Of a stretch of 64,000 nt of DNA, positions 2,083-35,029 are shown in pieces (the first letter of the stretch is position 1; the number at the start of each line of letters is the position of its first letter). Source of the stretch: Candidatus Latescibacterota bacterium. Lineage in GTDB: Bacteria > Latescibacterota > UBA2968 > UBA8231. Below the pieces are notes generated by a model that saw only the letters and a list, made by a program, of their open reading frames with translations, had not been told where the DNA came from and did no database searches. The stretch covers positions 3,360,001 through 3,424,000 of the forward strand of contig OZ241889.1 of assembly GCA_965203355.1 (NCBI GenBank). Direction: 5' to 3'. The position numbers and the translations under genes are program-made.

Positions 2083-2179
2083 TAAGAGAAAATTTATAGG
2101 TGTTGTCTGAGTCGGGTTTTGGTGAAGAAAACAAGAGCGACAAAAAGGTCGCTATGGATAGATAAGAACCGTTTCGCAT
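2083..2179 (-). pseudogene. Orphan gene start with signal-peptide-like N-terminus, possibly the 5' end of the TonB receptor
   Basis: AGGAG RBS (2185-2189) then ATG at 2179: MRNGSYLSIATFLSLLFSSP..., running into the IS end. Confidence 0.4.
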
Positions 2180-2293
2180 TTTTGCTCCTTCTCAATTAGA
2201 TATATAAATAGTGATAGCCTATTAGTTCGCTTTCGTCAAAGATGACCTCATTGATGACGTATGACGCCGCTGGTGTGGTAGGCCGCGGTTGGG

Positions 2294-2737
2294 TCAGAGC
2301 TTGATGACGGCGACGAGGACGCCGGTAATGGTCACTAACGTGCCCATCATCCACAGGAAATAGGTGTCCATGCGCTTGTGGACGGCGCGAATCTGCTCGC
2401 TCAAGTCGCGGTTGGTCTCGTCGATGCGCTTATTGGTTTCGTCGATGCGGTTGCCCAAGTCGCGGCTGGTCTCTTTGATGCTATCGTTCAATAAGCGGTT
2501 GGTCTCGTCGATGCGGTTGCCCAAGTCGCGGTTGGTCTCTTTGATGGCATCATTCAATAAGCAGTTGGTCTCGTCGATGCGGTTGTGGACGATTCCTATT
2601 TCGGTGCGTAGGGCTTGGATGTCGTCGTGCGATTGGGTGCGTAGGGCTTGGATGTCGTCGTGCAGATAGCTAATACTCCAAGGCATTTCTTCGGGGGCGG
2701 GGATCGCACGAGGTTGCGGGTCGACGCTTTTGCTCAT
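2294..2737 (-). CDS. Hendecad-repeat coiled-coil protein with C-terminal membrane anchor (DUF1640/CCDC90/Bdr-like architecture)
   Basis: 11-residue repeats RIDETNRDLGN / HDDIQALRTQS. C-terminal TM segment YFLWMMGTLVTITGVLVAVIKL. AGGAG RBS upstream. Confidence 0.7.
   Translation of the reverse strand: MSKSVDPQPRAIPAPEEMPWSISYLHDDIQALRTQSHDDIQALRTEIGIVHNRIDETNCLLNDAIKETNRDLGNRIDETNRLLNDSIKETSRDLGNRIDETNKRIDETNRDLSEQIRAVHKRMDTYFLWMMGTLVTITGVLVAVIKL
2410..2663. repeat. Coding tandem repeats, 33-bp period
   Basis: Repeated gttggtctcgtcgatgcggttg / ctctttgatg units. A 28-bp exact repeat occurs at 2603-2630 and 2636-2663. Confidence 0.85.
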
Positions 2738-2934
2738 GGCTACAGCTCCTGTGTCAGAAGAGGTTATTGAAATATAAACCGAGTGCTAACAAACACCAAC
2801 AAGTGGCTTGTTGTACATAGCAATATTGATGCCAGCGTCGATAGTCTGATAAAGCGGCTTGTGAGCGACGCCCACTGGGTCGAATCGCATCCATCAATGG
2901 ATACTAAAGGGCACTAAGAAGCACGTTGCGTTTC

Positions 2935-3987
2935 TTAGATCCACCCGTGCTGAGTGGTCACGGGCGCGCCGGAAGCTTGGGTCTGCCAATGCGGCTTGCG
3001 GCCGATTTTGACCTCGCGGCGGGTGAGAGACGAGGCTTCGGCGGCGAAGAGGATTTCCATGATGTGCCGCCCGTATTGGCCGTGGGTCGGCGGCTCGATG
3101 TTGTGCATAATGGCCTCGGCAAAACTCTTCCACTCGTGGTACATCTCGGTCGGCGCGTCCTCAAATGGGACGTCTGTCCACGTATCGCCCTGCCCTATTT
3201 TGACGTATTTCTCGCCGTGTTGGCTGAAGCGCAGCGAGCCGTTGGCGCAGATCACTTGGCATTCAAAGTTCGGCGCTCCGTCTGCGTATCCCACGGCAAC
3301 GGCCGTGCCGGCGAGGCCATTCTTGTAGCGGATAAAGGCTGTGGCCGAGTCGTCGCTGGCTTGGTAGTGAGCGCGAGTGCCAATGGCGGCCGAGACCGAC
3401 GCGGCTTGCGAAGCCATCACCCACGTGAGCCGATCGACGACGTGGACGCCGTTGGTCAACCACATGCCGCCGCCGTGAAAGCGACTGCGGTATTGGGGCC
3501 GACGGCCGGCAAAGTTCCAGTTTTTCGACATGTAGCTGACCGCCGTAATCACCGGGCCGAGTTGGCCGGAGTCGAGGATTTCCTTGGCCTTGAGGCTGGT
3601 GCTGTAAAAGTGTTGCGACAGCCCGACCATCAGCTTGACATTGTTCTCGGCGGCCGCGGCTACCATGGCATCGCATTGCGCTAGATCGATGGCCATGGGC
3701 TTTTCGACGAGGACGTGTTTGCCGGCGCGGCAGGCGTCGATGGTTAGCTGGTGGTGTAGCTGGTGGCCGAGCACGATGGCGACCGCATCGACGTCGGCGT
3801 CGGCCAAGAGTTCGCGGTGCGTTGAATAGCCCTTGGGGATGTGGTATTGGTCCATGTACTCGCGCCGCTTCTCGGCGAAGAGATCGGCGACTGCAACGAC
3901 TTCTACTGGGTCGAGTTGGGCGATTGCATCGCAGTGAGAGCGGGCGATGCCGCCGAGGCCAATGAGGCCGCCTTTGAGCGTTGTCAT
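2935..3987 (-). CDS. Gfo/Idh/MocA family oxidoreductase
   Basis: Rossmann motif GLIGLGGIA, AGKHVLVEKPMA, GGGMWLTNGVHVVD. Confidence 0.93.
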   Translation of the reverse strand: MTTLKGGLIGLGGIARSHCDAIAQLDPVEVVAVADLFAEKRREYMDQYHIPKGYSTHRELLADADVDAVAIVLGHQLHHQLTIDACRAGKHVLVEKPMAIDLAQCDAMVAAAAENNVKLMVGLSQHFYSTSLKAKEILDSGQLGPVITAVSYMSKNWNFAGRRPQYRSRFHGGGMWLTNGVHVVDRLTWVMASQAASVSAAIGTRAHYQASDDSATAFIRYKNGLAGTAVAVGYADGAPNFECQVICANGSLRFSQHGEKYVKIGQGDTWTDVPFEDAPTEMYHEWKSFAEAIMHNIEPPTHGQYGRHIMEILFAAEASSLTRREVKIGRKPHWQTQASGAPVTTQHGWI

Positions 3988-4061
3988 AGGATGTCCTTTA
4001 GTGTGAATGAGAAAATGCTAAGTATAGACGGCGGTTTGATCGGCGACAAATTAGCGCATGT

Positions 4062-4090
4062 TTGCACCAAAATAGATAATGCCCTAAGAT
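4062..4090 (+). promoter_or_regulatory. Putative sigma70 promoter (TTGCAC-17-TAAGAT), probably giving a leaderless mRNA
   Basis: The -10 box ends 6 nt before the ATG at 4097, and no SD sequence is present. Confidence 0.45.
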
Positions 4091-4096
4091 GCCCTA

Positions 4097-6040
4097 ATGC
4101 CCGGTAATTTTACCTATCGCTCGTTCGCCGTGGGCGCGTTGCTCTCGCTGGCGATCAACATGTTCTTCGCCTACGCCCGGCTGGCGATGGCCACCGCGGG
4201 CATGTCCTCGGATTACATCACCGCCGGCGCGGTTTTCCTGTTTTTCCTGGTGGTGGCTTTTATCAATCCCGCGCTCAAGCTAATGCGCCGTTCTTGGGGC
4301 TTTAATCGCTCCGAATTGATCGTCATTTACGCGATGATGATCATCGGCTCGGCGATTCCTACGTGGGGATTTACGGGCAATTTGATCGCCATGTTGCCCA
4401 ACATTTACTACTATGCTACGCCCGAAAACAACTGGTCGGAATTGTTGCATCCTTATGTCCGCGAGTGGATGGTGCCGCAGGATCCAGACGCGATCAAGTA
4501 TTTCTTCGAGGGCTTGCCCAAAGGGCAACCCATTCCTTGGGAACACTGGATGGTGCCGCTGGCGGCTTGGGTCTCGTTCATTTTGGCGATCTACTTGATG
4601 ATGATTTCCATTGCGTCGATCGTCCGCCGCCAATGGGTTGACTACGACCGCTTGACCTTTCCGCTGTTGCAGTTACCTATCGACTTGACCGAAGAAGGCC
4701 AGCGCGGGGCCATCATCGGGCCGCTGTTCAAAAAGCCGCTTTTGTGGATCGGGTTTGCGCTGCCTTTTGTGCTACACAGTACCAACGCCCTAAACCACTA
4801 TTTTCCCTTTATCCCAGCGGTGCAGTTGCGCCACAACATCTCGCTGTTTAACAACGCGCTGGGGCTGACGACGAATGTGAACTTCGCGGCGCTGGGGCTG
4901 GCGTACTTTTTGAGCTTAGACGTGGGGTTGAGCATTTGGCTTTTCCACTTGTTGACCAAAGCGCAGATCACCACTGAGAATGTCCTCGGCTATTCACTGC
5001 CCGGCCGCCGCGATCTGTTTATGGAAGGCTCGATGTCGGTGTCCTACGAGGGGATGGGGGCCATGCTGGTGCTGGTGCTCTACGGGCTGTGGAACAGCCG
5101 CGGCTATCTGCGACGGGTCTGGCGCAAGGCGCTGTACAACGAGGGCGGGCTAGACGATTCGCAGGAGATACTCTCGTATCGGGCGGCGCTCATCATCTTG
5201 GTTTTGGCCAGCGCGTACGCTACCGTCTGGCTGACCTTATCGGGCATACCGTGGTGGGTGGCGCTGTTTTTTCTTTTTGTCGCCTTTTGCATCTTCTACG
5301 GATTGACGCGCATTGTCGCCGAGGGTGGGTTGGGTTTTGCGCGGGCGCAGATGACGGCGCAGCCGTTTGTGATTGATGCCGTGGGCACGGAGGCGATTGG
5401 GCCGTCCGGGTTGGTGAGTTTGGGGATGACCTTTAGCTGGGCGGGCGACCTGCGGACTATGGTGATGGCCTCGGCGATCAACGGGCTCAAGCTGGCCGAT
5501 GTGGGCCAAGTGCGCGGGCGACCGCTGTTTTGGGCGTTGATGCTCTCGATTGTGGTCGGCTTGGCTGGCTCGATCTGGATGGTGGTGTGGATGGGCTACC
5601 AGTACGGGGGAATCAATTTAGACTGGTGGTTCTACAATCGCTTCGGCGAGATCATCCACGGCGACTCGGCCTACAAGATCGCCAATCCAAGGCACCCCTT
5701 AAACGACTTTGGCGAGATCGGGCCGCGCTTCATGTTCGCGGGCATTGGCGCGGCGCTCATGGGGCTGTTGATGTACGCCCGGCACCACTTTCTCTGGTGG
5801 CCGGTACACTACCTCGGCTTCCCCATCGGCGCGACCCTGACGATCATCTGGACGTGGTTTGGGATTTTCATCGGCTGGGTTCTCAAGGCCCTAGTGCTCA
5901 AATACGGCGGCGTGACGCTCTACCGGCAGCTACGGCCTTTGTTTTTAGGGTTGATTTTAGGACACATTTTTGTCTCGGGATTCTGGGTGTTCTTCGACTA
6001 TGTCACCGGGGAGACCGGCAATCGAATTCCGATTTTTTGA
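4097..6040 (+). CDS. Polytopic membrane transporter-like protein (DUF6785/DUF6784 family)
   Basis: Many TM helices; family motifs YYATPENNW, RRQWVDYDRLTFPL, RIVAEGG, WWPVHYLGF, RPLFLGLILG. Paralogue of 21154-23052. Confidence 0.75.
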   Translation: MPGNFTYRSFAVGALLSLAINMFFAYARLAMATAGMSSDYITAGAVFLFFLVVAFINPALKLMRRSWGFNRSELIVIYAMMIIGSAIPTWGFTGNLIAMLPNIYYYATPENNWSELLHPYVREWMVPQDPDAIKYFFEGLPKGQPIPWEHWMVPLAAWVSFILAIYLMMISIASIVRRQWVDYDRLTFPLLQLPIDLTEEGQRGAIIGPLFKKPLLWIGFALPFVLHSTNALNHYFPFIPAVQLRHNISLFNNALGLTTNVNFAALGLAYFLSLDVGLSIWLFHLLTKAQITTENVLGYSLPGRRDLFMEGSMSVSYEGMGAMLVLVLYGLWNSRGYLRRVWRKALYNEGGLDDSQEILSYRAALIILVLASAYATVWLTLSGIPWWVALFFLFVAFCIFYGLTRIVAEGGLGFARAQMTAQPFVIDAVGTEAIGPSGLVSLGMTFSWAGDLRTMVMASAINGLKLADVGQVRGRPLFWALMLSIVVGLAGSIWMVVWMGYQYGGINLDWWFYNRFGEIIHGDSAYKIANPRHPLNDFGEIGPRFMFAGIGAALMGLLMYARHHFLWWPVHYLGFPIGATLTIIWTWFGIFIGWVLKALVLKYGGVTLYRQLRPLFLGLILGHIFVSGFWVFFDYVTGETGNRIPIF

Positions 6041-6053
6041 GGAGGAAAAATCA

Positions 6054-7082
6054 ATGCAAGCAGCAGACCGAGCAAGCATTGGCCCGCACGGCTTGGAGGT
6101 AACGCGCTTGGGGTTGGGCGGCACGACCTTTGGCAATATGTACTCGGTGCTGAGCGAGCAGGAGGGGTTGGCCGTGCTAGACGCGGCCTTTGCGGCTGGG
6201 GTGCGCTACTTTGACACGGCGCCGCTGTACGGTTACGGCCTGAGCGAGACGCGCTTGGGGCCGGGGCTGGCGCGCTACAACCGCGACGAGATCGTCCTGT
6301 CCTCGAAAGTGGGCTATGCGCTGGCCGAGCGAAAGCCCGGCGACCGCTACGTCGAGCTGTTCGTCGACGCGCCTGAGATGACCAGCTATTTCGATTACTC
6401 GCGCGACGCGGTGCTGCGTTCGATTGAGGGGAGTTTGGCGCGGCTCAAAATGGATCGCCTCGACATGGTGCTGATCCACGACCCGGACGAGTCGAGGAGC
6501 ATTGAGCCGGATTGGACGCCGGGCGAGCGGGGATACTTCGATCAAGTGATGGCCGAAACCTATCCTGCGCTCGACGAGCTGCGCCAGCAAAAGGTGATCA
6601 AGGCCCTCGGCTTGGGCATGAACCAGTGGCAGATGCTGGCCGACTTTGCCCGGGCTGGGGATTTCGACGCCTTTTTGCTGGCTGGCCGCTATACGCTGTT
6701 GGAGCAGGAATCGCTGCGCGAGTTGTTGCCGCTGTGCTTGGAGCAGGGGGTGCGGATCGTCATTGGCGGGCCGTACAATTCGGGCATTTTGGCTACCGGA
6801 GCGGTCGCCGGTGCGCGTTACAACTACGCGCCCGCACCGCGCGATGTGCTGGAAAAGGTGCGCCGCATTGAAGCGGTTTGTGCGCGGCACCGGGTGCCTT
6901 TGCCGGCCGCGGCGCTGCAATTTCCCTTTGGCCATCCGGCCGTGGCGACCGTCATTCCCGGGGCGCGGACCGTCGCGGAAGTCACCGCCAATGTGGATTG
7001 CTTAGCGCACGCCATTCCCGCCGACTGTTGGGCCGAGCTCAAACGAGAAGGGCTGATCGATGCGGCGGCGCCCACGCCTTAG
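6054..7082 (+). CDS. Aldo/keto reductase (D-threo-aldose/L-fucose dehydrogenase-like)
   Basis: YFDTAPLYGYGLSE, SSKVG, FDYSRD, IHDPD, LLAGRYTLLEQ. GGAGG RBS before the ATG at 6054. Confidence 0.9.
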   Translation: MQAADRASIGPHGLEVTRLGLGGTTFGNMYSVLSEQEGLAVLDAAFAAGVRYFDTAPLYGYGLSETRLGPGLARYNRDEIVLSSKVGYALAERKPGDRYVELFVDAPEMTSYFDYSRDAVLRSIEGSLARLKMDRLDMVLIHDPDESRSIEPDWTPGERGYFDQVMAETYPALDELRQQKVIKALGLGMNQWQMLADFARAGDFDAFLLAGRYTLLEQESLRELLPLCLEQGVRIVIGGPYNSGILATGAVAGARYNYAPAPRDVLEKVRRIEAVCARHRVPLPAAALQFPFGHPAVATVIPGARTVAEVTANVDCLAHAIPADCWAELKREGLIDAAAPTP

Positions 7083-12010: not shown

Positions 12011-13834
12011 GTGGTTGATAGATACGCCATGATCGCTGGGCTACGGGCCGGGCACTTGGGCTGGCTCGTCTTCGCCCTCGCCTTCGCGGTGCGGGTCGCC
12101 TATGTCTTCGAAGCGGATGCGAGTCCGCTTTTTGCCCATCCGGCGGTCGATGCCAAGACGTACACGCACCACGCCCAGCGTTTGGCAGCGGGCAACTGGT
12201 TGGGCGTTGGCGAGGGGCCGTTTTGGCAGCCGCCGCTCTATCCGTACTGCCTCGGGGCGGTAAAAGCTCTTTTTCCCGCGTCGTTTTTTTATGCCGTGCG
12301 CTTGGTCCAGGCCCTGCTAGGGGCGCTGGTCTGCGCGATGAGTTGGTGGCTCGGGCGCACCTTGTTCAATCCGGCCGTGGGGGTTTTGGCGGGGATTGGC
12401 GCGGCGCTGTGTGGGCCGCTGATTTTTTTCGACGGCGAGTTGCTGCCGGCTTCACTCGCCGCCTTCGTCGATCTGCTGGCCCTAGTGCTGCTTGTGCGCG
12501 TCTGGCGTCGCCCGACCCATTGGGGATTTTGGGGGGCTGGGGTGGCCTTTGGCCTGGGTGCGTTGGCCGTGCCGACCGTGCTGACTTTTGCGGTCGCCGT
12601 GCCCATCGCTCTCCTGTGGAGTGCGCCCCGGCGGCCGGGTTTGGGCTGGGCTGGTGCGTTTTCACTCGGAGTCGTATTGGCCATCGCGCCGGTGGCGTGG
12701 CGCAACCTCGCCATTGGCGGCGACGGGGTGGGGATTTCCTACAACGCGGGGATCAACCTGTACATCGGTAATAACCCCGACTATGCCGAGACGGTGGCCA
12801 TCCGCCCGGGATGGGAGTGGGACGATTTAGTTACCCAACCGGCGCGGGCGGGGATTGAGCGGCCAGCGGCTAAGTCGGCTTACTTTGCCGAGCGAGTTTG
12901 GGACTACATCCGCGGCGATCCAACGGGGTGGCTGGGGCTGATGGGGCGCAAGCTATGGGCGTTTTGGCACGGCGACGAGCGGGGGCGCAATCAGCCGATT
13001 TACTTCTGGCGCACGTACTCAACGGTGCTGTCGGCGACGCTGTGGAAAGCGGGCCTTGCCTTCCCCGTTGGCTTAGTGGCCCCTTTGGCCCTGTGGGGCA
13101 TGTTGCTGAGTCTGCGGCGGATTGGGCCGACGTGGCCGCTGCTGTACGTGCTGTGCTACTGTTTGGGGGTGGTGGCGTTTTTTGTGGCGGCGCGCTATCG
13201 GGTGCCCGTGCTGCCGGTGCTCATGGTCTTTGCCGCCTATGGGGTGTGGGTGCTGTGGGACTGGGGACGGGCGGGCTGTTGGCGCGACGCCGGGCTGGGG
13301 TTGGCCGTCTGTTTGGTCTTTGCGTTGGCGGCCAACCGGTCGCTAACGCCGATGGACATGGAAGGGGATGCGGCCATTCACTACAATTTGGGCAATGCGT
13401 ATGCCGAGGCCGGCGACAAAGAGCGCGCCCGAGCGGCGTTTGAGCGGGCCGTGGCCGAGGATCCCGAGTACTGGCAGGCCTGGTTAAATTTGGGCGGGGT
13501 CGAGGCGGCGTTGGGCGATCTCGCTCGCGGGGAAGAAATTTTTGCGCGGGTGGCGCAAAAGGCCCCGCGGCGAGTCGAGCCGTGGATGAACTTGGCGCAC
13601 GTGCGGATCATGCAGCGAGACTTGGAGGGCGCCTTTAGCTGTTACGAGTCTGCGCTCGCGGCGAATCCCAACTTCCTCCCGGCCTACGCGGAGATGATCC
13701 GCCTCTACGGGCAACGGGGCGATCTGGCCCGCGCCGCGCACGTCCTCCAACGAGCCGTTGATCGGTTGCCCGCCGAGCGCGGGCGGCTAGAGCGGCTGTA
13801 CGGACAGCTACTCAACGCGGCTGGACGACCTTGA
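12011..13834 (+). CDS. GT-C (PMT/ArnT-like) membrane glycosyltransferase with C-terminal TPR domain
   Basis: DAKTY, PFWQPPLYPY, NAGINLYIGNNP, RYRVP; many TMs; TPRs (HYNLGNAY, AWLNLG). The start may be 12029. Confidence 0.75.
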   Translation: MVDRYAMIAGLRAGHLGWLVFALAFAVRVAYVFEADASPLFAHPAVDAKTYTHHAQRLAAGNWLGVGEGPFWQPPLYPYCLGAVKALFPASFFYAVRLVQALLGALVCAMSWWLGRTLFNPAVGVLAGIGAALCGPLIFFDGELLPASLAAFVDLLALVLLVRVWRRPTHWGFWGAGVAFGLGALAVPTVLTFAVAVPIALLWSAPRRPGLGWAGAFSLGVVLAIAPVAWRNLAIGGDGVGISYNAGINLYIGNNPDYAETVAIRPGWEWDDLVTQPARAGIERPAAKSAYFAERVWDYIRGDPTGWLGLMGRKLWAFWHGDERGRNQPIYFWRTYSTVLSATLWKAGLAFPVGLVAPLALWGMLLSLRRIGPTWPLLYVLCYCLGVVAFFVAARYRVPVLPVLMVFAAYGVWVLWDWGRAGCWRDAGLGLAVCLVFALAANRSLTPMDMEGDAAIHYNLGNAYAEAGDKERARAAFERAVAEDPEYWQAWLNLGGVEAALGDLARGEEIFARVAQKAPRRVEPWMNLAHVRIMQRDLEGAFSCYESALAANPNFLPAYAEMIRLYGQRGDLARAAHVLQRAVDRLPAERGRLERLYGQLLNAAGRP

Positions 13835-15440
13835 GCACTTGATTGGCGGCGACCTTGTCTAAGGTCTGATGCGTCCCGTCCGGCCAGCGGATTGCCACTT
13901 GGGCGCTCGTGGCGGTGCCCAACCCGAAGTGGAGACGCGGGTCGTGGCTGGCCAGATAGCTGCCGCCGGATTGACGCTCCTGCACTTGGCGCATTCCAGC
14001 GGCGATTACCTCCACGCGCGTGCCGAGCGCATCGGGGTGCATTTTTCCCACCAACAGGATTTGCAGCCAGTGATGGGCATTGCCGCCATCGTTGCGCAAC
14101 AGCCGGGGCCGCGCCGCTACGGTGGTCACTAGCAGGTCTATATCGCCGTCGTCGTCGTAGTCGGCGACAGCGGTGGCGCGGCCGACATTGGCCTTTTGAA
14201 AATCCGGGCCCATCGCGGCCGAAACGTCGGCAAAGCGGCGGCCCGCGTCGTTGCGGAATAGCTGGTTGGGTTGCCGATAGGTCTGGCTCGAGTCCACTTC
14301 GGCAATGCGGTCGATGACGTGACCATTGGCGGCGAAGAGGTCGAGGTCGCCGTCGTTGTCGTAGTCGAAGAATTTAGTCCCAAAGCCGAGGGGGCGATAC
14401 GAGGGATCGGCCAGGCCGAGCCGCTGGGTGGCGACGGCGAATTGGCCTTGGCCGTCGTTGCGGTAGAGGGCGTTGGTCTCAAAGGCAAAGTTGGTGACGA
14501 AGAGGTCGAGGTCGCCATCGCGGTCGTAGTCGCCAAAATCAACGCCCATGCCGGCGTCGGCATGCCCGTGCTCGTTGTAGCGCGTACCAGCGGTCAAGCC
14601 CACTTCGGCGAAGGTGTTGTGCTGGTTGGCGTAGAGGAAGTTCATGGTGCCGTCGTTGGCCACGTAGATGTCGGTGTCGCCGTCGCCATCGTAGTCGGCC
14701 AGCGCAACGCCCAGCCCCTTGCCCTTGAGTGCGATGCCGACGGCCGCGGTGACGTCGGCGAAGGTGTGGCCGTCGTTGCGGTAGAGGAGGTCGCCGGTGG
14801 GATCGTACGCGCTCGGCGCGCAGTACGAGCGCACTGGCCCCTGCTGGCAGACGGCTTCGGCGTCGAGGGCGTAGCGCACGTAATTGGCGACGAACAGGTC
14901 GAGATCGCCGTCGAGATCGTAGTCGAGGAAGCCCGCACTAGAACCCCAGCGCGGGTCCGCTAGCCCAGCCGACGTTTGAGCGAAGCTGCCTTGGTCGTTG
15001 CGGTAGAGGGCGTTGGGGCCGTAGTTGGCGACGAATAGGTCGGTGTCGCCATCGCCATCGTAGTCCGCGGTCGCGACGCCAAAGCCGTAGCCGGGGTCGG
15101 CGCTGCCGCTGTGGGCGGTGACGTCGGCGAAGGTGCCCGCGCCCGCGTTGCGATAGAGCCGATTGACCGGCCGTGGCTCCGGGGCATGGCCGGTCAGATA
15201 GGTGCCGTTGGCGAGGTAGAGGTCGAGGCGGCCGTCGCCATCGTAGTCGAGGAAGGCGGCTCCAGCCCCGAAGGTTTCGACGTAATAGTATGCGCCGGAA
15301 AAGCCATTGTAGTGGACGAAGTCGATGCCAGCGGCGTCCCCGGCATCGGCCAAATGCACTGGGGGTGCTGGGGGGGCTTTAGGGGCACAGGCGCAGAGGA
15401 TGCTGGCGAGGGCCAGCCCTCGCATCTTGTCGTTCATCAA
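13812..15440 (-). CDS. CRTAC1-like lipoprotein (FG-GAP repeats plus ASPIC/UnbV domain)
   Basis: Repeated DYDGDGDLDL/YRN motifs, C-terminal GSYLASHDPRLHFGLG...WPDG, lipobox-like LCAC. Confidence 0.9.
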   Translation of the reverse strand: MMNDKMRGLALASILCACAPKAPPAPPVHLADAGDAAGIDFVHYNGFSGAYYYVETFGAGAAFLDYDGDGRLDLYLANGTYLTGHAPEPRPVNRLYRNAGAGTFADVTAHSGSADPGYGFGVATADYDGDGDTDLFVANYGPNALYRNDQGSFAQTSAGLADPRWGSSAGFLDYDLDGDLDLFVANYVRYALDAEAVCQQGPVRSYCAPSAYDPTGDLLYRNDGHTFADVTAAVGIALKGKGLGVALADYDGDGDTDIYVANDGTMNFLYANQHNTFAEVGLTAGTRYNEHGHADAGMGVDFGDYDRDGDLDLFVTNFAFETNALYRNDGQGQFAVATQRLGLADPSYRPLGFGTKFFDYDNDGDLDLFAANGHVIDRIAEVDSSQTYRQPNQLFRNDAGRRFADVSAAMGPDFQKANVGRATAVADYDDDGDIDLLVTTVAARPRLLRNDGGNAHHWLQILLVGKMHPDALGTRVEVIAAGMRQVQERQSGGSYLASHDPRLHFGLGTATSAQVAIRWPDGTHQTLDKVAANQVLKVVQPR

Positions 15441-15665: not shown

Positions 15666-15857
15666 ATGCCGTTTATCAGCGTGAAGATGCTCGCGGGGCG
15701 TTCTGTCGAGCAGAAGCGGGCCTTAGTGGAAGCACTGACCGAGGCCATAGTGGATACCTGTAACGCGCCCCGCGAGGGGACGACGGTCGTGCTTGAAGAA
15801 TGCGAGCGCGAGCACTGGGCCATTGGTGGGGTGCTGGTGGCGGACCGCCCGCAATAA
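15666..15857 (+). CDS. 4-oxalocrotonate tautomerase family protein
   Basis: Catalytic Pro1 (MPFI), GRSVEQKR, HWAIGG; 63 aa; AGGAG RBS. Confidence 0.9.
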   Translation: MPFISVKMLAGRSVEQKRALVEALTEAIVDTCNAPREGTTVVLEECEREHWAIGGVLVADRPQ

Positions 15858-16236
15858 GGTGGACGCCGCCGCGGACGTGGAAGGACGGCCGAGCGGACCT
15901 CCTCGTCCGTCAGCATCCTATCGCTTGAGGGCTGCTTCCCGAACAGCCAGATCATCGAATAGAAGGGATGCGGCCAGTATGGCTTTATGCTGGCGTTCGG
16001 CTAATTATCGCGAATTTAGGTCTTAATAAGGCATCCTTTTCAACGACTGAGGCTTCGACGCTTTGAGGTAAGCAACAGTATGCTAAAGACCTGTATCCAG
16101 CTTGTGCTGACGCTGGCTTGGCTGGTAGGCGGGGCAGACGAGTGTAGCGGCTCACCGGTCGCGTATCTTTTGGTGCTTGCGGTTGGCGGGCTATTGCACT
16201 GAAGAGGAAGGCCGGGATGGCGTAATGGTCGCCGCG

Positions 16237-17942
16237 TTAGACCCTGTGGCCGTGTTGCCCTCGCATGTAAAAGGTGCCGTTTGGGTTCATGCCGGGGAAT
16301 CTCCACGTGCCGGGGTTGATGGGCCAAGGTAGAACATCGGCGCGATCTGCCCATTCGCGGTAGCCCTGTTCCATTTCCCGAACCCGGTCTTTTTCTCGCT
16401 CTGCTAAGTTGTCGAGTTCGGTGCGATCTTCTTCCATGTTGTAGAGTTCCCAGTCGCCTGGGCCGCTGGTTTCGCAGACTAGTTTCCACGGCCCGCGGCG
16501 GATGGCGGCATTGCCCTCGTGTTCCCAGTACATAGGCTTTTCGCGCGACCATTCGCGGCCTTTGAGGAGCGCGAGGAAGCTCTCGCCTTCGAGGGGCGTA
16601 ATGGCGTGGCTGTCGTATTCGGCGGGATAGGATGCGTCGGCCGCGTCGATGAGGGTGGCGGTGATGTCGATGATCTGGGCCGGGGTGTGCGTCAAGTCGG
16701 GTTGTTTGATGGTGGCTGGCCAACGGACAATACAGGGGGTGGCGATGCCGCCTTCGTGGACCCAGCGCTTGTAGCATGACTGCTTCAAATGCTTTAACTT
16801 TCACCCTGACCGGTGGCGATGCCGCCTTCGTGGACCCAGCGCTTGTAGCGGCGGAAAGGGGTGGTGCTGACATTGGCCCAAGGCACGTCATAGCTCATGT
16901 ACGTATCCGCGGCGCCGGGCATCAGGCCGGGGATGTTGCCCATTTGCACGGGTCGCCCGTCGTGCGTCGTCAAGCCCGGCAAAAAGACCCAGTCAATGCG
17001 GTTGCCGTCCTCGCACAAGAATTCAGCGCAGCCGCCGTTGTCCGAGAGGAAAACGACTATGGTGTTATGCTCCACGTTGAGTTCGCGGAGTTTGGCGAGG
17101 ATGCGACCGATGCCTTGGTCCATGCGATCGACTTGCGCTGCGTACACGGCCATGCGCCGGTCTTCCCAGTCTGGGTCGGCCACTTCATGCCAAGGAGGGG
17201 CGTCCGCATCGCGGGGCGATATGTCCCAGTGGGCGCTGACGATTTCTAGGGCTTTGAGCGTTTCGTGTCGAGCGGTGCGGGCTGCGTCCCAGCCGCCTTT
17301 GCGGTACTGGCCTTGGTAGCGGGCGATGTCCTCTTCAAAGGCGTGGAGCGGCCAGTGCGGTGCTGTGTACGCAACGTACATGAAGAAGGGCTGGTCGGTG
17401 CTTTCGGCGATGAAGTCAACGGCGTGGTCGGCGATGGCGTCGGTGAGGTAGAAGTCGGTGGGGTCGGCGTCGATAGGTTGGCCGTCGAGGGTGCAGGTGC
17501 GCCCGCCAAAGTAGCCGCTGTTGGCGCCGAGGCCAAACAGGCGGTCGAAGCCGTGCTGCATCTCGGGGGGGATGTCGGTGCTGGCGGGTCTTTTGCCGCA
17601 GTGCCACTTGCCCGACATTAGCGTGCGATAGCCGCGCTCCTTGAGCACTTGGGCGATGGAGACGGCCGAGTGGCGCAGGTAGCCGCCATAACCGGGGGCG
17701 TTGGGGATGCCGCCGGCCATGTGGCCGATGCCGGCTTGGTGTGGATAGAGACCGGTCAGCAGGGCCGCGCGCGAAGGGCAGCACCGGGCGAAATTGTACA
17801 TCTGCGAGAAGCGCAGCCCCTCGGCGGCGAGGCGGTCTAGGTTGGGGGTGCGGATTTCTGAGCCGTAGCAGCCGAGGTCGGAATAGCCCATGTCGTCGGC
17901 GAGGATGAGGACGATGTTGGGACGCTGGGACGCGGTGGTCAT
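16237..17942 (-). pseudogene. Arylsulfatase (formylglycine-dependent) disrupted by a 74-bp insertion
   Basis: PNIVLILADDMG, CCPSR, GKWH, APHWP, SDNG. YKRWVHEGGIAT occurs in both ORF halves; deleting 74 bp restores a 543-aa ORF. Confidence 0.9.
16738..16849. repeat. Exact 38-bp direct repeat flanking a 36-bp unrelated insert (repeat-spacer-repeat unit)
   Basis: GGTGGCGATGCCGCCTTCGTGGACCCAGCGCTTGTAGC at 16738-16775 and 16812-16849. Insert ATGACTGCTTCAAATGCTTTAACTTTCACCCTGACC at 16776-16811. Confidence 0.95.
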
Positions 17943-18022
17943 GGCGGAACTCCTGCTGGGCAAGTTGGGAATTCAGAATTGCGAATTAAATTAACAATTT
18001 TTAAAAAGAAAGAAGATGTTTT

Positions 18023-18958
18023 ATGGCTATAAAGCATGGATTGACCGCCGAGGAACGCGCAAAGTATGCACAAGACGGGTTCTTTATTCGCTCAGCTGCC
18101 TTTGATGCTTGTGAGATGGATGCACTGCGCGACAGCATCGAAGCACTCGTAGAACTCATCGAGACTGCTGACGTGTTGACGGAAAAACAAAAGCAAATAA
18201 TTCTGAAGCGCAATGTCAGAACCGAGGTGCCCTCTGGGCCTGCGTCCTTAAACAGTATATGGCGACTTCACACGTTCAGCGCATTGGTGCGATCGCACAT
18301 TCGCGACCCAAGGCGACTGGATGCGGTTGCCGAGATCGTCGGGCGCGATTTGTTCTGTCCAAACGATCTGTATTTTTTCAAACCCCCGGGCACCGGGCGG
18401 CCTATTGCGTGGCATCAGGACTCGTGGTATTTCCGCAATACGTATGTCAGTAGCATCGGCGACGCTATAGACCAATCGACGATTGGAACTTGGCTGGCGC
18501 TCGATGGTGCAGATGAAGAAAACGGATGCTTGTGGGTGATCCCCGGCAGTCACCGCTTGGGCGTGATAGATCACCGTCAGGTCGAGAGCGATGATTATCT
18601 ATTGCAAAAAAGAGTGACCGTGGCCGACGAGATGGAAGAACAGGCCATACCGGTAGCCGTGCCAAAGGGTGCCTTGGTGTTTTTTAACAATGCGCTATTG
18701 CACCGCAGTACACCCAATAGATCCGATCGGTTTCGGCGGGCTTATATCGTGCATTACATGAAGGCGACTATCCAACATGCTGGGAACAGACAAAGGATTC
18801 CCGAAGGCGCGGAGCATTGGGGCACACCTGAGATGTACATCTGCGGACGGCAATTGCCCGGGTGCGTACAAACAACGCTTGAGAAAGACAGCATGGATTG
18901 GGACAAAGCGTTGGAACGGACCTTGACAGAAGATGACATTAGGGTTTCGGAGCCGTAG
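18023..18958 (+). CDS. Phytanoyl-CoA dioxygenase (PhyH) family protein
   Basis: YAQDGFF, FFKPPG, WHQD, WLALD..ENGCLWVIPGSH, LLHRSTPNRS. Confidence 0.93.
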   Translation: MAIKHGLTAEERAKYAQDGFFIRSAAFDACEMDALRDSIEALVELIETADVLTEKQKQIILKRNVRTEVPSGPASLNSIWRLHTFSALVRSHIRDPRRLDAVAEIVGRDLFCPNDLYFFKPPGTGRPIAWHQDSWYFRNTYVSSIGDAIDQSTIGTWLALDGADEENGCLWVIPGSHRLGVIDHRQVESDDYLLQKRVTVADEMEEQAIPVAVPKGALVFFNNALLHRSTPNRSDRFRRAYIVHYMKATIQHAGNRQRIPEGAEHWGTPEMYICGRQLPGCVQTTLEKDSMDWDKALERTLTEDDIRVSEP

Positions 18959-21153: not shown

Positions 21154-23052
21154 TTAGAAATAGTAAAATGAATAGACCAAAGACGAGCCCCCCACGCCGA
21201 CGCAAGCTCCCATGATAAACCCCAAAAAGAGCGGCCGCATCTTTCGGTAGAGCACGACCCCTCCGTAGCTGATCAGAACCGATTTAACAAGCCAAGCGAG
21301 GAACATCCCAAACCAATCGCCGCGCACGGTATTGGTCAGGGCTACGGCCAGCCCCACCGGATGCAGTGGCCAGCCGGCCAGGCGATGCTGGGCGAAGGAA
21401 AGCAGTCCGGCGAGTCCCGCGCCAATGCCAGTAAATAGGGTGGTCAGGTGTTGCGGCGGGTGCGGGTTATTGACCGTTTTGGCGACCCAACCCCACTTGC
21501 TCAGCGGCGAGTTGATGTAGTACCAGCGGAAGCCGTGCATCATACCGTGCTGATAGCCTAGCCATATATAGACCACGATGGTGGTGACCGCGCTGACCAC
21601 GAGGGCGGAGGCGAGGAAGAACAGCAGCTTGCGGGCACTGATCTTTTCCTTGACTTCCTCGCAGACCTTGAAGGCGTGGGCCATCGTGCCCATGAAGAAC
21701 AGTTGCACGTCCGCGGCCCAGACCATGTTGAGCCCCATAGCGGTGAGTCCCTTATCGCCGAAATAAGCCGTGCCGAAGATGTTGGTAAAAAGCGGCGGGA
21801 TGGAATGGGGCGCGCGCAGCCGCCCCAAGCCGGTTTGCACCAGCAAGCGCGCGGTGCCCAAAAATACCAACAGCGCGACCAGCAAAAAGGCCAAGCTCCA
21901 GCCGAGGGAGAGTCCAGTGGCGTGAAGGAAGTACGCCATATAGCCCAAGCCGCCCACTCCCATAAGCGCCGAGATGCGCGGCGAGGGCAGGTGTGAGTCC
22001 GGGCCTTTTGCGCCGCTGGCGATAGCGTGCCACTGGTTTTTGAGAAAGTCGCGCGAAATCCACAGCGACGAGAGGATCAAAAAGATGAGGGCTCCCATCT
22101 GCTGATGCGACATCAGCACGGAGACCTGCTGGTGCGGCTGGGCCGGGAGGTTGACGACAACGCCTAAAAAGCCCAACAGGCCGTGTTCGAGATAGACGAG
22201 GATGTGAAAGAGCCAGACGCTCAAGAGCACATTGAGGTTGAGCAGATAGCCTAGGCCGACGACGAGGAAGTTGACGTTGAGCCCATAGGAGATACCGAGG
22301 CGGCGCAAAAAAATGCGCGTGGACGGGATGCCGAAGTTGTCAATGGTCTCAAAGTCGAACACTTGGTCGAGCATGTTGACGGTCGGGATGAGCGCGGCGA
22401 TGAAAAAACCGACCCAGAACAGCGGATTCCGAAAGAGGCTTTTAGCTGGATTTTCCACGCTCTCGACCATCGCCGTTGGCACTACGGCCAAGGGATAGAC
22501 CAAGCGCTCGCGGCTGGCCCACTGGTGATGGAGCAGGGCGATGAGCGAGAAACTGATCAAGAAGAAGGCGACCATGAACAGGCCCCAGAAGACAGCCGGG
22601 CCGAGCCAAGCGTCCCACGGCAGCGGCGCCCCGGCGGGCGCTCCCTCGAAGAGGTTGCGAATCATCGCTAGGTCGCGTGGAGCGGCCCAGTCGGGAATGT
22701 AGTCCCAGAGCAGTTCGCGCCAGTTGTTTTCCGGGGTGGCGTAGTAGAAGACGCCAGCGAGCAGGGGAATAAAATAACCGCCAAAGCCCATAGTCGGCAT
22801 GACTGTGGCCACCATCAGCGCGGCGTAGATGAGGGCAAAAGTCGAAGTCGGCAGCCGCAGGAAGGGCCGAATCAGCGCGAGCAGGAGGGCGGTAAGCGCG
22901 ACCCAGAACAGGGCGAAGATAACGCCAACGGTGTTGAAGTGGTCGGCGTAGCCCGAGTAGTGGTCGAGCAGGATGTAGCTGCGCACCCCAATGAAGTTGT
23001 GGCCGACGCACAGCGCCATGGCCAGCGTCCATTCGAGGGCCGAGCGCATCAC
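21154..23052 (-). CDS. Polytopic membrane transporter-like protein (DUF6785/DUF6784 family)
   Basis: YYATPENNW, HQWASRERLVYPL, WPLHPVG, RPLFLGFIMG. Paralogue of 4097-6040. Confidence 0.75.
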   Translation of the reverse strand: MMRSALEWTLAMALCVGHNFIGVRSYILLDHYSGYADHFNTVGVIFALFWVALTALLLALIRPFLRLPTSTFALIYAALMVATVMPTMGFGGYFIPLLAGVFYYATPENNWRELLWDYIPDWAAPRDLAMIRNLFEGAPAGAPLPWDAWLGPAVFWGLFMVAFFLISFSLIALLHHQWASRERLVYPLAVVPTAMVESVENPAKSLFRNPLFWVGFFIAALIPTVNMLDQVFDFETIDNFGIPSTRIFLRRLGISYGLNVNFLVVGLGYLLNLNVLLSVWLFHILVYLEHGLLGFLGVVVNLPAQPHQQVSVLMSHQQMGALIFLILSSLWISRDFLKNQWHAIASGAKGPDSHLPSPRISALMGVGGLGYMAYFLHATGLSLGWSLAFLLVALLVFLGTARLLVQTGLGRLRAPHSIPPLFTNIFGTAYFGDKGLTAMGLNMVWAADVQLFFMGTMAHAFKVCEEVKEKISARKLLFFLASALVVSAVTTIVVYIWLGYQHGMMHGFRWYYINSPLSKWGWVAKTVNNPHPPQHLTTLFTGIGAGLAGLLSFAQHRLAGWPLHPVGLAVALTNTVRGDWFGMFLAWLVKSVLISYGGVVLYRKMRPLFLGFIMGACVGVGGSSLVYSFYYF

Positions 23053-25758: not shown

Positions 25759-27323
25759 TTCATCCTATGGCTATTCATCGCTGGTGTAGAGGACGGCCAG
25801 GTCTTGTTGCTGAATTTTGCGATGGCTTGGGCTGCCGCTGCCGAGTCGCCTGCCTGCCGGTACGCGAGCACGAGCCCCCGCTGTGCCGATGGCTGATCGG
25901 GATCTTGGGCTAGCGCTTGTTCGTATCGTTCGGCTGCGGTATGGGCATCGCCTTGTTGCAACTCGAGGTTTCCCAGCGCAATGAAAACATCGGCTGAATT
26001 CTCGGACAACTCCAGCGCCCGTTCGTACGCCTCTCGACTTAGGTCGATGTAGCCGCTAGTGGCATAGGCCGTGCCTAGGTTGTACCACGCCAAGCCATAG
26101 TCTGGCTTGAGATTCAGGGCTTGGCGGTACGCCGAAATCGCCTCGCTCGGGCGACCTAGTCGGATGTGGGCATTGCCGAGGTTCTGCCAGGCGCGGGCGT
26201 TGTCCGGCTGGAGCGACAAACCGTCGCGCAGGTGTCTAACGGCTCCCGCGTCGTGCCCGAGGCGAACGTAGAGGCGGGCGAGTTTGAAGTGTGTACTGGG
26301 ATTACGGCCCGGCTGGGCTAGCGTGCGCAGGTTCTCGATCTCAGCTATGTGCGGCTCAATTCGCCGATGGGTGGTGTGCTGTTCCTCGGCGTCCCGACTA
26401 CGACCTAGCTGGCGGTACGCGGAAGCCAACTGAAGACGAACATCGGGATGCACTGGGTCGAGTTCGAGAGCCTTCTCAAGAGCCGCGGCCGCTTCGACAT
26501 GCTTTTCCAACCGGGCTTGGGATATTCCCAGACCGATGTGCGCCTCCACTGAAGCGGGGTCGAGATTGACTGCTGTCGAAAATGCTTTGAGGGCCTGGTG
26601 GGCTCGTCCTACTTGTAGGAGGGCGCGGCCTACGGCTACCTCGTATCTGACGCTGTCTGGTGCCAAGGCGATGGCTCGCTGGAGGAGGTCCAAACTTTCC
26701 GCACAGCGACTTAGGTGTTCGCACTGGAGAGAACCCAAGGCGAAGATCGCCTCGTGAGACGTGGGCTCCAATTCCACCGCTTGCTCCAGCGAGGTATGGG
26801 CTGCCGCTACATCCCCCCGAGCCACCTGCACTACACCCATCAGCTTGTGCAGCGTTGAGCGGGCCGAATCGAGCGCGATGGCTTCGGCGAGTGCGAAGTG
26901 GGCGTTGTCGAGTTGTCCGACCCCGAGCCACGCCACCGATAGGCTCTCTAACGTCTCGGCATTGCGCTTGACCGCGACCGCGCGCTGCGCTAGGGCGAGT
27001 GCCGTGGTGTGATCGCGGATTCGGGCCAGAACCTCGCTGAGACCCATCAGGGCCCCCACGTGCAGACTATCCGACCGCAGCACCCCTTGGAACTGATCCA
27101 TTGACTGATCCACGTGCCCCAAGTCGAACAGTACGCGGGCAAGCGACGTCCGGGTCTCGGTATCTGTGGGGTGTTCGCGCAGTTGTTCTTCATACGTCAG
27201 CCGCAACCGTCCCAATTCGTCCGCTGTGGGCGGCGCGTCCGCAGCAGGGCGTTGGCTTTCGCACCCGACGAGCACCCCGATCAGGGCTAGGAACCACGCT
27301 TGTACTCTCACCGGGGCGTCCAT
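25755..27323 (-). CDS. Tetratricopeptide-repeat lipoprotein
   Basis: Lipobox VLVGC and many TPRs (AWQNLGNAH, AWYNLGTAY). The start overlaps the end of the upstream FG-GAP gene. Confidence 0.88.
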   Translation of the reverse strand: MDAPVRVQAWFLALIGVLVGCESQRPAADAPPTADELGRLRLTYEEQLREHPTDTETRTSLARVLFDLGHVDQSMDQFQGVLRSDSLHVGALMGLSEVLARIRDHTTALALAQRAVAVKRNAETLESLSVAWLGVGQLDNAHFALAEAIALDSARSTLHKLMGVVQVARGDVAAAHTSLEQAVELEPTSHEAIFALGSLQCEHLSRCAESLDLLQRAIALAPDSVRYEVAVGRALLQVGRAHQALKAFSTAVNLDPASVEAHIGLGISQARLEKHVEAAAALEKALELDPVHPDVRLQLASAYRQLGRSRDAEEQHTTHRRIEPHIAEIENLRTLAQPGRNPSTHFKLARLYVRLGHDAGAVRHLRDGLSLQPDNARAWQNLGNAHIRLGRPSEAISAYRQALNLKPDYGLAWYNLGTAYATSGYIDLSREAYERALELSENSADVFIALGNLELQQGDAHTAAERYEQALAQDPDQPSAQRGLVLAYRQAGDSAAAAQAIAKFSNKTWPSSTPAMNSHRMK

Positions 27324-29080
27324 GGCTCGCCTTCTACAATGCGCACAAAGTGCCCTGCCGACACGGGCCCCACGGTTTGCGATTCGCCCGCTGGCCAACG
27401 AGTCAGGATGCGGTCCACTGCGGTCCGGTGCCCGAGGCCAAAGTGTAGTCGCAGATCATTGTGAGACAGGTAACTGCTGCCCCCTCGCACCTCGGCCGTT
27501 TGCCGCAGGTCAGCGGAGAATACCGTGACGCGTGCCCCGATTCCACTGCGATTGCTTCGCGTACCCTCCACCTCGACAGAAATCCAGTTGGCGCGGTTGC
27601 CGCTGTCGTTTCTGAGCAGGTGCGGACGCTGATTGTTATTGGACACGAACAGGTCGACATCTCCGTCGTTGTCGTAGTCAGCCGCGGCTGAGCCGCGTCC
27701 TACGCCGGCTGAGAACGCCGTCAGACCACTCGCCGCGGTCACGTCGGTGAACGTGCCGTCGCGATTGTTGAGAAAGAGCTGGTCGTGCTGTGCATAGCGC
27801 GGGCCGGCGCTGTCGAGAATTTCGATGTTGGGCTCGACATGGCCGTTGGCGAGGAACAGATCGGGATACCCGTCGTTGTCGATATCGACGAAATCGGTCC
27901 CGAAGGTGAGCGTTTGATAGGTCGGCCCGCCGAGGCCGCTCGGTGCGGTGTGGTCTGCGAATTGACCCGCTCCGGCATTGTGCAGCAGTCGGCAGGGTTC
28001 CCACTGGAAGTTGCACACGCCTAGGTCGAGCCGCCCGTCGCGATCATAATCGGCCCAATCAGTGCCCATGCCCGCCTCCGGGACCCCATCGGGACTCGTC
28101 GAGACGCCGGCCGATACCCCGACTTCGGCGAATCGAGATCCGTCGTTGCGGAACAGGAAATTTGGCTCGTGATCGTTGGCGACATAGAGATCAAAGTCGC
28201 CGTCGTCATCGTAGTCGGCAAATCCCACGCCTAGCTGCCGACCCGCTTCGGTCCAGAGCCCTATCGAGTCGGTGATGTCCGTGAAACCGAGGTCGCCGTC
28301 GTTGCGGAACAGAGCCCCGGAGTCACCGGGATAGGCACCAGGGCCACAGTAGATCTGAATCAGTCCGCGATAGCATTCCGGGCGATCATCTCCGACGATC
28401 CGCACGTCGTTGGCGACGTACAAATCTAAATCACTGTCGAGATCGATGTCGGCGAAGGCCGTACTCGTCGATACTCGCCGATCGCCGGTCCCCGACCATT
28501 CGGTCACGTCTGCAAAGCGGCCATTGCCTAGATTTCGATAGAGCCGATTGGCCCCCCAGTTCGTGACATAGAGGTCCGCATGGCCATCGTTGTCGATGTC
28601 CCCAACGCCGACCCCCATGCCGAAGCTGGTGTCGGCGACCCCTGCTGCCGCTGCCCTATTGACGAAGGTCCCGTCGGTCTGATTCACGAATAGCGCGTTG
28701 GCGGGCAGGTGAGCGGTGAGGACGCCGGGGCTAGCAGCGCTGTTCACGACGTAGAGATCCGGGAAACCGTCGCCGTTGAAATCGGCAAATGCGGCACCTG
28801 AGCCATGGGTTTCGGGATAGTGGTAGGCCCCGGCCGCGCCATTGAAGTGGCGGAACTCGATCCCGGACTCGGCCGCGACCTCGCTGAATCGAGGGGAGGT
28901 AAGAGCCGATTCCTCCTCGGCACCACAGCCCGACAAAACGGGTGCTGTCACCAAAGCAGCTTGCAGTGCCAGACGGACTAGATAGGCCCTATTCGATTGG
29001 TCTTTGTCTGCGCAGCTATATCGCTGTTGTGTATTGTAATTCATAGGTTGGTCCGCCGAGCACCGATGATCCGAATCCAC
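27308..29080 (-). CDS. CRTAC1-like lipoprotein (FG-GAP repeats plus ASPIC/UnbV domain)
   Basis: Lipobox VLSGC, DFNGDGFPDL-type repeats, SSYLSHNDLRLHFGLG...RWP. The true start is probably downstream of 29080. Confidence 0.9.
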   Translation of the reverse strand: MDSDHRCSADQPMNYNTQQRYSCADKDQSNRAYLVRLALQAALVTAPVLSGCGAEEESALTSPRFSEVAAESGIEFRHFNGAAGAYHYPETHGSGAAFADFNGDGFPDLYVVNSAASPGVLTAHLPANALFVNQTDGTFVNRAAAAGVADTSFGMGVGVGDIDNDGHADLYVTNWGANRLYRNLGNGRFADVTEWSGTGDRRVSTSTAFADIDLDSDLDLYVANDVRIVGDDRPECYRGLIQIYCGPGAYPGDSGALFRNDGDLGFTDITDSIGLWTEAGRQLGVGFADYDDDGDFDLYVANDHEPNFLFRNDGSRFAEVGVSAGVSTSPDGVPEAGMGTDWADYDRDGRLDLGVCNFQWEPCRLLHNAGAGQFADHTAPSGLGGPTYQTLTFGTDFVDIDNDGYPDLFLANGHVEPNIEILDSAGPRYAQHDQLFLNNRDGTFTDVTAASGLTAFSAGVGRGSAAADYDNDGDVDLFVSNNNQRPHLLRNDSGNRANWISVEVEGTRSNRSGIGARVTVFSADLRQTAEVRGGSSYLSHNDLRLHFGLGHRTAVDRILTRWPAGESQTVGPVSAGHFVRIVEGEPWTPR

Positions 29081-32929: not shown

Positions 32930-32952
32930 GAAAGTAGGCGAGAGGAGGATTT

Positions 32953-35022: not shown

Positions 35023-35029
35023 GGATTTA

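Follow-up and report, generated by a model that had tools for sequence, protein, structure and literature searches.

The stretch analysed here (the window, 64,000 nucleotides of contig OZ241889.1, positions 3,360,001 to 3,424,000) derives from a sponge-associated Candidatus Latescibacterota and carries an arylsulfatase gene (PF00884; 16237..17942, minus strand) that is broken by a 74-bp insertion and is otherwise intact. The structure of the insertion can be read directly from the sequence. A 38-bp direct repeat, GGTGGCGATGCCGCCTTCGTGGACCCAGCGCTTGTAGC, is present in two copies that are 100% identical and lie 74 bp apart from start to start. The left copy (16738..16775, plus strand) belongs to the native coding sequence of the sulfatase, reads antisense to the gene and encodes part of RYKRWVHEGGIATP. 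It is followed by a 36-bp insert, the candidate spacer (16776..16811, plus strand), which is unrelated to the gene, and then by the second copy of the duplication (16812..16849, plus strand). Because the bases just outside the copies differ (G versus C on the left, A versus G on the right), the duplication is exactly 38 bp long, and an exact repeat of this size cannot have arisen by chance within 64 kb. An earlier note, made from the sequence alone, had described this exact 38-bp duplication around an unrelated 36-bp insert, with GC contents of 26/38 and 15/36, and both the arrangement and the composition are borne out. The note attributed them to an off-target spacer integration by a CRISPR system. 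We regard such integration as the best explanation of the locus, although it is unproven.

The insert stands out from its surroundings in composition. The window has a GC content of 0.60, the insert one of 42%, and AT-richness at the level of the insert is reached by 3.4% of window 36-mers. The insert is thus compositionally foreign with respect to the window, a point that counts in favor of spacer capture. None of its words of at least 11 nt occurs a second time in the 64-kb window.

Removal of the 74 bp in silico yields a single frame of 543 amino acids followed by a stop codon, running on the minus strand from an ATG at 17942 to a stop at 16237. The restored sulfatase carries the motif CCPSR, and its length equals that of the orthologue clusters P0001 and P0002, which were found at 93% identity. 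With the insertion in place, 377 native codons and then the residues GQGES are read before a premature TAA stop (16794-16796, minus strand) inside the insert. Apart from the 74-bp insertion, no further lesion was seen in the gene. The claim that a net gain of 74 bp shifts the frame, and that its removal restores a 543-residue open reading frame (ORF) with the CxPxR motif, therefore holds, with the motif kept as CCPSR. One correction concerns the C-terminal half of the protein, which is read in the frame of ORF 16237-16788 and not in that of the longer, overlapping ORF 16040-16891. The latter (minus strand, 283 amino acids) was considered as a part of the sulfatase and set aside as a spurious other frame with no Pfam match.

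The closest sulfatase orthologues, at 90-93% amino acid identity, come from Candidatus Latescibacterota metagenome-assembled genomes, several of which are complete chromosomes of 6.2-7.3 Mb; two come from records labelled Gemmatimonadetes. The empty site is observed directly in these relatives: in 13/13 orthologues the region of the 38-mer occurs once and the insert is absent. An identical, single-copy 38-mer is found in 9/13 of them, and the other four carry one or two changes. At the DNA level, the best identity between the window and 60 relatives is 90-91%, over about 6.3 kb (window 31046-37381).

The insertion allele is real, and it is directly visible in sequencing reads. Twenty-four runs were listed for window 15800-18200, of which X20-X24, from three studies, contain 95-98% of the sampled words, and two sponge-metagenome runs contain about one third of them. 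Contigs from X20, X23 and X24 (studies P14, P15 and P16, respectively) and from X1 were compared. In X20, X23 and X24 a 96-nt contig runs from the tail of one repeat copy through the insert to the head of the next (16746-16841) and shows 0 differences, at depths of 436 (X20), 151 (X23) and 3 (X24) that are similar to those of the flanks. The earlier note had pointed to raw reads as the check on the assembly, and the insert junctions are indeed present at 100% identity in contigs of three runs from three studies. A strain in X1 that is about 97% identical has the empty site, with a contig in which 16737 is followed immediately by 16812.

An assembly or sequencing artefact, in the form of a chimeric read or a misjoin at the repeat, could draw on the fact that a 38-bp repeat breaks graphs built with k=31 and that no single contig of X20, X23 or X24 spans the whole structure. 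The contig breaks in these runs fit a 38-nt repeat, one contig stopping 30 nt into the left copy and another starting 8 nt into the right copy, and in each run a separate 38-nt contig is the repeat itself. Against an artefact stands the recovery of the same 96-nt piece, with 0 differences and flank-like depth, in three runs of three studies, from at most one of which the window assembly can derive. These contigs effectively refute it. The 38-nt repeat contig is deeper than the insert contig by factors of 3.7 (X20), 3.3 (X23) and 2.0 (X24). Extra copies of the 38-mer in the strain are still a possible cause of this excess; co-resident relatives are the simpler and likely one, and they suffice, since 9/13 related species carry the identical 38-mer. 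The event had been called recent, which is true in a relative sense: the insertion allele was assembled in all three high-share runs compared and is thus established and not a rare somatic variant, in contigs that cannot separate it from a wild-type allele coexisting in the same strain.

CRISPR systems of matching dimensions are directly observed in relatives. Cas1 (PF01867) was found in three of the five relatives searched first and then in 22/30, and an array adjoins each of the seven Cas1 loci inspected. Two species have in common a type I-G locus (typed with NCBIfam models) that encodes a fused Cas4g/Cas1g (772 bits), Cas2, Csb2, Cas7g and Cas8g1, and that is collinear between them over the array-distal flank and the cas4/1-cas2 genes. 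The repeat of this I-G system has a length of exactly 36 nt, reads ATTTCC...CATTGAAGC from leader to array and ends in ...TTGAAGC; its spacers measure 36-41 nt, with a mode of 37 (36 nt in 9/41, 37 nt in 18/41 and 38 nt in 5/41). At three mismatches or fewer, this repeat family is present in 8/30 relatives, including G005, G006, G007 and G013, which are four of the five closest searched. One species has an I-B-like system with Cas1, Cas2, Cas3, Cas5b and Cas7/Cst2. Its repeat is exactly 37 nt long, 23/67 of its spacers are of 37 nt, and the modal period of 74 is the one also seen in the window; among 30 relatives, only one has this I-B-like repeat. A third repeat family, also of 37 nt, ends in ATTGAAAC and has spacers of 37-48 nt, and arrays with 28-29-nt repeats occur in the relatives as well. 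The earlier note had predicted repeats of about 36-38 bp ending in ATTGAAGC or ATTGAAAC, with spacers of about 36 bp, and had held that a lineage lacking cas1-cas2 or having incompatible repeat lengths would speak against it. Repeats and spacers of the predicted kind are found in relatives, and the lineage does have cas1-cas2 genes alongside repeats of compatible length.

Two side observations concern the I-G systems. In G005 a type III-A module (Csm2-Csm4, Cas10/Csm1 and a CARF/ring-nuclease-like protein; L089:2718-7415) lies between cas4/1 and the I-G effectors, and this combined I-G and type III-A locus adjoins a single array; the syntenic I-G locus of G001 differs in its middle part. Solitary I-G repeats with 2-3 mismatches lie off arrays at G003:C1:1697021-1697056, G007:C1:65985-66020, G013:C60:1772-1807 and G009:C401:31350-31385. 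Decay of arrays may have left them behind, or they may lie beyond a cas operon; G003, one of their bearers, has no Cas1 match.

How could such a system break a sulfatase gene? Cas1-Cas2 encoded elsewhere in the genome would have integrated a prespacer of 36-38 nt, by a full-site reaction, into the sulfatase at a non-CRISPR position. The most likely enzyme is the Cas4/Cas1-Cas2 of type I-G, common in the genus, or else the integrase of a system whose repeats measure 37 nt. With its two 3'-OH ends the prespacer would attack opposite strands about one repeat length apart, and gap filling would duplicate the 36-38 bp between the points of attack. The expected product has repeat-spacer-repeat geometry with a period of 74, and would bring a frameshift and a stop codon into the sulfatase. 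In this account the locus is a "wrong-address" CRISPR memory, in which the integrase, probably the I-G Cas4/Cas1-Cas2, would have placed a foreign prespacer in a conserved block of sulfatase codons and so killed the gene, the allele then becoming established in a strain sampled by three independent host datasets. We favor this account because it explains both lengths to within 1-2 nt of the repeat and spacer sizes of the lineage, and because the enzyme family is common in the genus and is known to make such a product off-target. To our knowledge, Cas1-Cas2 is the only well-characterized bacterial enzyme that duplicates a target of 28-37 bp around an insert of 30-40 bp. Of the original suggestion that a CRISPR integrase acted here as an insertional mutagen, the parts that gained support are the presence of the allele in reads and the existence of lineage systems of matching size; a protospacer or protospacer adjacent motif (PAM) was not found, and the likeness of the site to CRISPR repeats is marginal.

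The dimensions fit as follows. A 36-nt insert has the length of the 9/41 I-G spacers given above and of 15/67 I-B-like spacers, all of them spacers of relatives and not of the strain itself, and parses of the insert as 37 or 38 nt also fall within the spacer range of the relatives. The duplicated site is bordered by G...C and ends in CTTGTAGC, which agrees in 6/8 positions with the ATTGAAGC of the I-G repeat; two or fewer mismatches to ATTGAAGC or ATTGAAAC are found in 0.5% of window 8-mers per strand.

A number of observations, set out here and in the search for the source of the insert below, weigh against integration by Cas1-Cas2. Eight of the 30 relatives, including G004, one of the closest, have no Cas1 among their matches, and no cas gene was found among the 39 window ORFs of at least 220 amino acids that were scanned. 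We infer, from systems known in relatives only, both that the strain itself has a CRISPR system of this kind and that the insertion is its product. The 38 nt of the duplication exceed by 1-2 nt the repeats of 36 nt (I-G) and 37 nt (I-B-like and the one further family) seen in relatives. A parse into 37 + 37 nt needs one base at the end of the spacer to equal the flank by chance and a parse into 36 + 38 nt needs two, coincidences to which our arithmetic gives odds of about 0.4 (one base) and about 0.2 (two bases). The 38-bp length therefore fits only with one or two coincidental bases or with an imprecise off-target ruler. Over the whole site, identity to the repeats of three relatives is at best 17/37, and 16/37 in the other orientation (both for the 37-nt parse against the I-B-like repeat), and a level of 17 matches to one of the three repeats is reached by 5.0% of window 38-mers. 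The likeness between the site and the relatives' repeats is thus marginal (p~0.05). Of the repeat-like ends that the earlier note had described, the 6/8 match to the I-G repeat end stands, while similarity over the whole site is at this marginal level; the GGTGGC/GCCGCC palindrome noted at the left edge is out of register with the hairpin of the I-G repeat. The leader-side flank, compared by eye, has no convincing similarity to leaders.

The fold of the duplicated site is also unlike that of the I-G repeat. As RNA, the site folds no better than its shuffles (z 0.21, against -2.56 for the I-G repeat), and its small hairpin is placed unlike the I-G stem, so that a processed CRISPR RNA is not expected. 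No CRISPR-like array or Rfam match was detected in the window, and what the locus has in place of a functional array is two copies only, both of them conserved sulfatase coding sequence. The structure is an insertional mutation and not a working mini-array. Outside CRISPR arrays and tandem repeats, no other two-copy exact repeat of at least 30 bp around an unrelated insert was seen in 1.65 Mb from 108 sources, a sample that falls short of the whole lineage.

Long duplications around inserted DNA are known from some mobile elements, and the locus could be a remnant of an element of the insertion sequence (IS) group IS1634/IS1549, from which a deletion left 36 bp between the copies of the target. 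The direct repeats of IS1549 and IS1634 are reported to measure 8-514 bp (PMC2266710), so that 38 bp is not impossible, and long direct repeats flanking inserted DNA are a point of likeness. For IS4-related families, IS1549 and IS1634 excepted, the same source lists 4-13 bp (PMC2266710), far below the 38 bp seen here. The long duplications of IS1549 and IS1634 flank an element of 1.5-2 kb with a transposase, where the present locus has 36 bp with no inverted termini. The insert itself contains no terminal or internal inverted repeat: its ends match in 5/15 positions, and its best score against its own reverse complement is below that of 99.6% of shuffles. Neither the 36-mer, searched at three mismatches or fewer, nor a 60-nt query across its junctions gave multi-copy, IS-like matches in 60 relatives, and there is no transposase or integrase among the 39 scanned ORFs. 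Two rare events would be needed, both leaving the copies of the duplication untouched. We consider an IS remnant very improbable.

If the insert is a captured spacer, where did it come from? The exact 36-mer had 0 matches in three collections (genome_contigs, viral_contigs and metagenome_contigs), and at three mismatches or fewer it was found in 0/60 relatives. A blastn search of phage sequences returned 30 records, none covering at least 80% of the insert and the best with an E-value of about 1, and one of plasmids returned three records, the best with an E-value of about 4; both are at chance level. None of 204 spacers from five arrays of relatives is like the insert, the only match being one of 9 nt that is attributable to chance. 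The protospacer and PAM that the earlier note had proposed to look for were thus found in none of the genome, viral, metagenome, phage, plasmid or relatives' DNA searched.

A query of 60 nt, made up of the insert and 12 nt of repeat on each side, was also compared with 60 relatives. The best match, in G006, is of 24/26 nt (E 6e-4 per genome, or about 0.04 over 60 genomes) and takes in the final 5 nt of the left repeat (GTAGC) and nucleotides 1-21 of the insert. It lies in a gene for a low-molecular-weight phosphatase-like protein (PF01451; L108:5060-5557, minus strand, in G006:C1:2698000-2709000), within an island of 33-44% GC (L108 ~500-7000) in a genome of about 60% GC. Its neighbors in the island include genes for a metallophosphoesterase, an NTP transferase and an inositol monophosphatase. 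Of the 30 relatives searched, the other 29 have no homologue of the phosphatase gene at the DNA level. Its matched bases encode RS-MTAAYAL, which corresponds to the conserved motif CTGNIFRS-MTAE[YF]AL in the best 120 of 389 homologues (389 being the number at E <=1e-5), and the similarity to the insert stops where the phosphatase family turns variable. The first frame of the insert reads MTASNALTFTLT; a 6-mer of this peptide occurs in none of the best 120 of the 389 homologues. Relatives of the G006 protein were sought by pattern in metagenome_contigs (190 matches, 0 confirmed) and viral_contigs (13 matches, 0 confirmed). A search with a 29-sequence alignment found four viral contigs (L111-L114, IMG/VR) that encode phosphatases of the CTGNVFRS type (FVCTGNVFRSKTAAALA...), none of them with a match to the insert; given this motif class on four viral contigs, the phosphatase class does travel on viral DNA.

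A second match to the junction query, in G016 (21/22 nt; E 0.004 per genome, about 0.26 over 60), was put down to chance; it lies amid GC-rich matches to the same end of the query.

If the G006 match is real, the insert may have come from AT-rich accessory or mobile DNA, an origin that would suit a spacer. The donor would then also share GTAGC with the target, which Cas1-Cas2 integration does not predict and microhomology-based mechanisms do; moreover, the PAM position in the G006 orientation would read AGC, and not the TTN reported for type I-G. The match thus keeps alive a rival explanation in which CRISPR has no part: a microhomology-driven template switch, or the capture of filler DNA by end joining at a staggered break, with the CRISPR-like dimensions as a coincidence. 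By the template-switch route, a nascent strand would leave after ...GTAGC, copy about 36 nt from an AT-rich donor sharing GTAGC, and return 38 nt upstream. The match to G006 is the best in 60 relatives, it crosses the junction of repeat and insert, and it covers a conserved phosphatase motif and ends at the variable part, so that true homology combined with a 5-nt microhomology is plausible; the failure to find a protospacer or PAM is a further point on this side. The match is borderline, at about 0.04 after 60 genomes, and involves a selection effect, as it is detectable only through five matching flank bases, which makes it a lead and not deciding evidence. In addition, the G006 gene is missing from the other 29 relatives searched, the whole 36-mer has no donor in the three collections or, at three mismatches or fewer, in the 60 relatives, and nothing in this explanation gives a reason for 38 bp and 36 bp both to fall within 1-2 nt of the repeat and spacer lengths of the lineage. 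We know of no precedent in bacteria for small insertions that combine a duplication with a distant template. Template switching and end joining, taken together, are therefore a possible but doubtful origin of the insertion. The earlier note had also named the joined ends of a mobile element and a nearby template-switch source as alternative origins: nothing in the insert resembles inverted repeats or IS ends, the window contains no source for it, and the borderline junction match in G006 leaves room for a template-switch source. The small probability that remains beside Cas1-Cas2 integration, microhomology, an IS remnant and an artefact falls to explanations outside those considered here.

Off-target integration by Cas1-Cas2 is a mechanism already known. 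According to papers that cite it, the work of Nivala, Shipman and Church (2018, Nat Microbiol) reportedly described off-target "neo-CRISPR" integration upon overexpression of the E. coli type I-E Cas1-Cas2, and is said to include circumstantial evidence from two other species; the duplications were reportedly of about 28 bp. As those papers portray it, the E. coli case resembles the present one in that a chromosomal site outside CRISPR loci has a target duplication of repeat length around an insert of spacer length, with the potential to disrupt a host gene. It differs in being a product of laboratory overexpression, where the present event would be a natural one in an uncultured sponge symbiont. 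In addition, dimensions of 36-38 bp point here to an integrase of the I-G or I-B-like kind, and the strain in which the allele is established was seen in three datasets. In the literature searched, which comprised papers apart from their supplements, the only natural off-target cases were the circumstantial two-species evidence of Nivala et al., as relayed by citing papers.

Two further systems can be compared in site and size. In vitro, Pyrococcus furiosus Cas1-Cas2 carries out full-site off-target integration at sites with G and C one repeat length apart and 43% identity to the repeat (PMC6698737). The duplicated sulfatase site likewise has G...C borders and 43-46% identity to the 37-nt repeat of a relative. 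The P. furiosus experiments used plasmids and a 30-bp repeat (PMC6698737). The likeness at the sulfatase site is marginal and is measured against relatives' repeats, not those of the strain itself. For the type I-U/I-G Cas4/1-Cas2 of Geobacter sulfurreducens, the spacers integrated are mainly of 36 bp, the adjoining repeat ends in AGC and the PAM is TTN (PMC6547450). The spacer length and the AGC repeat end are points of likeness to the present case, and the same fused Cas4g/Cas1g is present in relatives. The canonical Geobacter events are leader-proximal array integrations with TTN PAMs (PMC6547450), in contrast to a site within coding sequence at which no PAM can be read.

What would be new is a natural case that is established in a population and lies in a conserved gene, for which 13 related species have the empty site and the genus a matching I-G system. 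Off-target integration is well documented in vitro and upon overexpression, and its occurrence and cost in the wild are almost undocumented. If the sulfatase insertion did arise in this way, it would be the cleanest example from nature to date of insertional mutagenesis by CRISPR adaptation, and would show that the adaptation machinery places a mutational load on host genes. It would also provide a real example of how new repeat-spacer-repeat units become seeded, and a defined 38-bp off-target substrate for work on the ruler of I-G or I-B-type integrases and on the sites they prefer. The question can be tested directly, since related complete genomes offer both matching systems and the empty site. 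Should the insertion have arisen through microhomology instead, it would be an unusual small duplication with a templated insertion in a bacterium, and a lesser curiosity.

The remainder of the 64-kb window is ordinary chromosome, with genes for sugar and sulfate metabolism, TPR and FG-GAP proteins, and ABC transporters. It includes paralogous pairs of DUF6785+DUF6784 proteins (4097-6040 and 21154-23052), FG-GAP/ASPIC proteins (13812-15440 and 27308-29080) and PhyH dioxygenases (18023-18958 and 62882-63715). Together with sulfotransferase, sulfatase and GH116 genes that are also present, these pairs make up a sulfated-glycan utilisation neighborhood. Tandem repeats with a 33/66-nt period and up to 93% matches lie at 2397-2663, and another pair of 33 nt at 2600-2663; the segment is probably repetitive coding sequence and is unrelated to the insertion.

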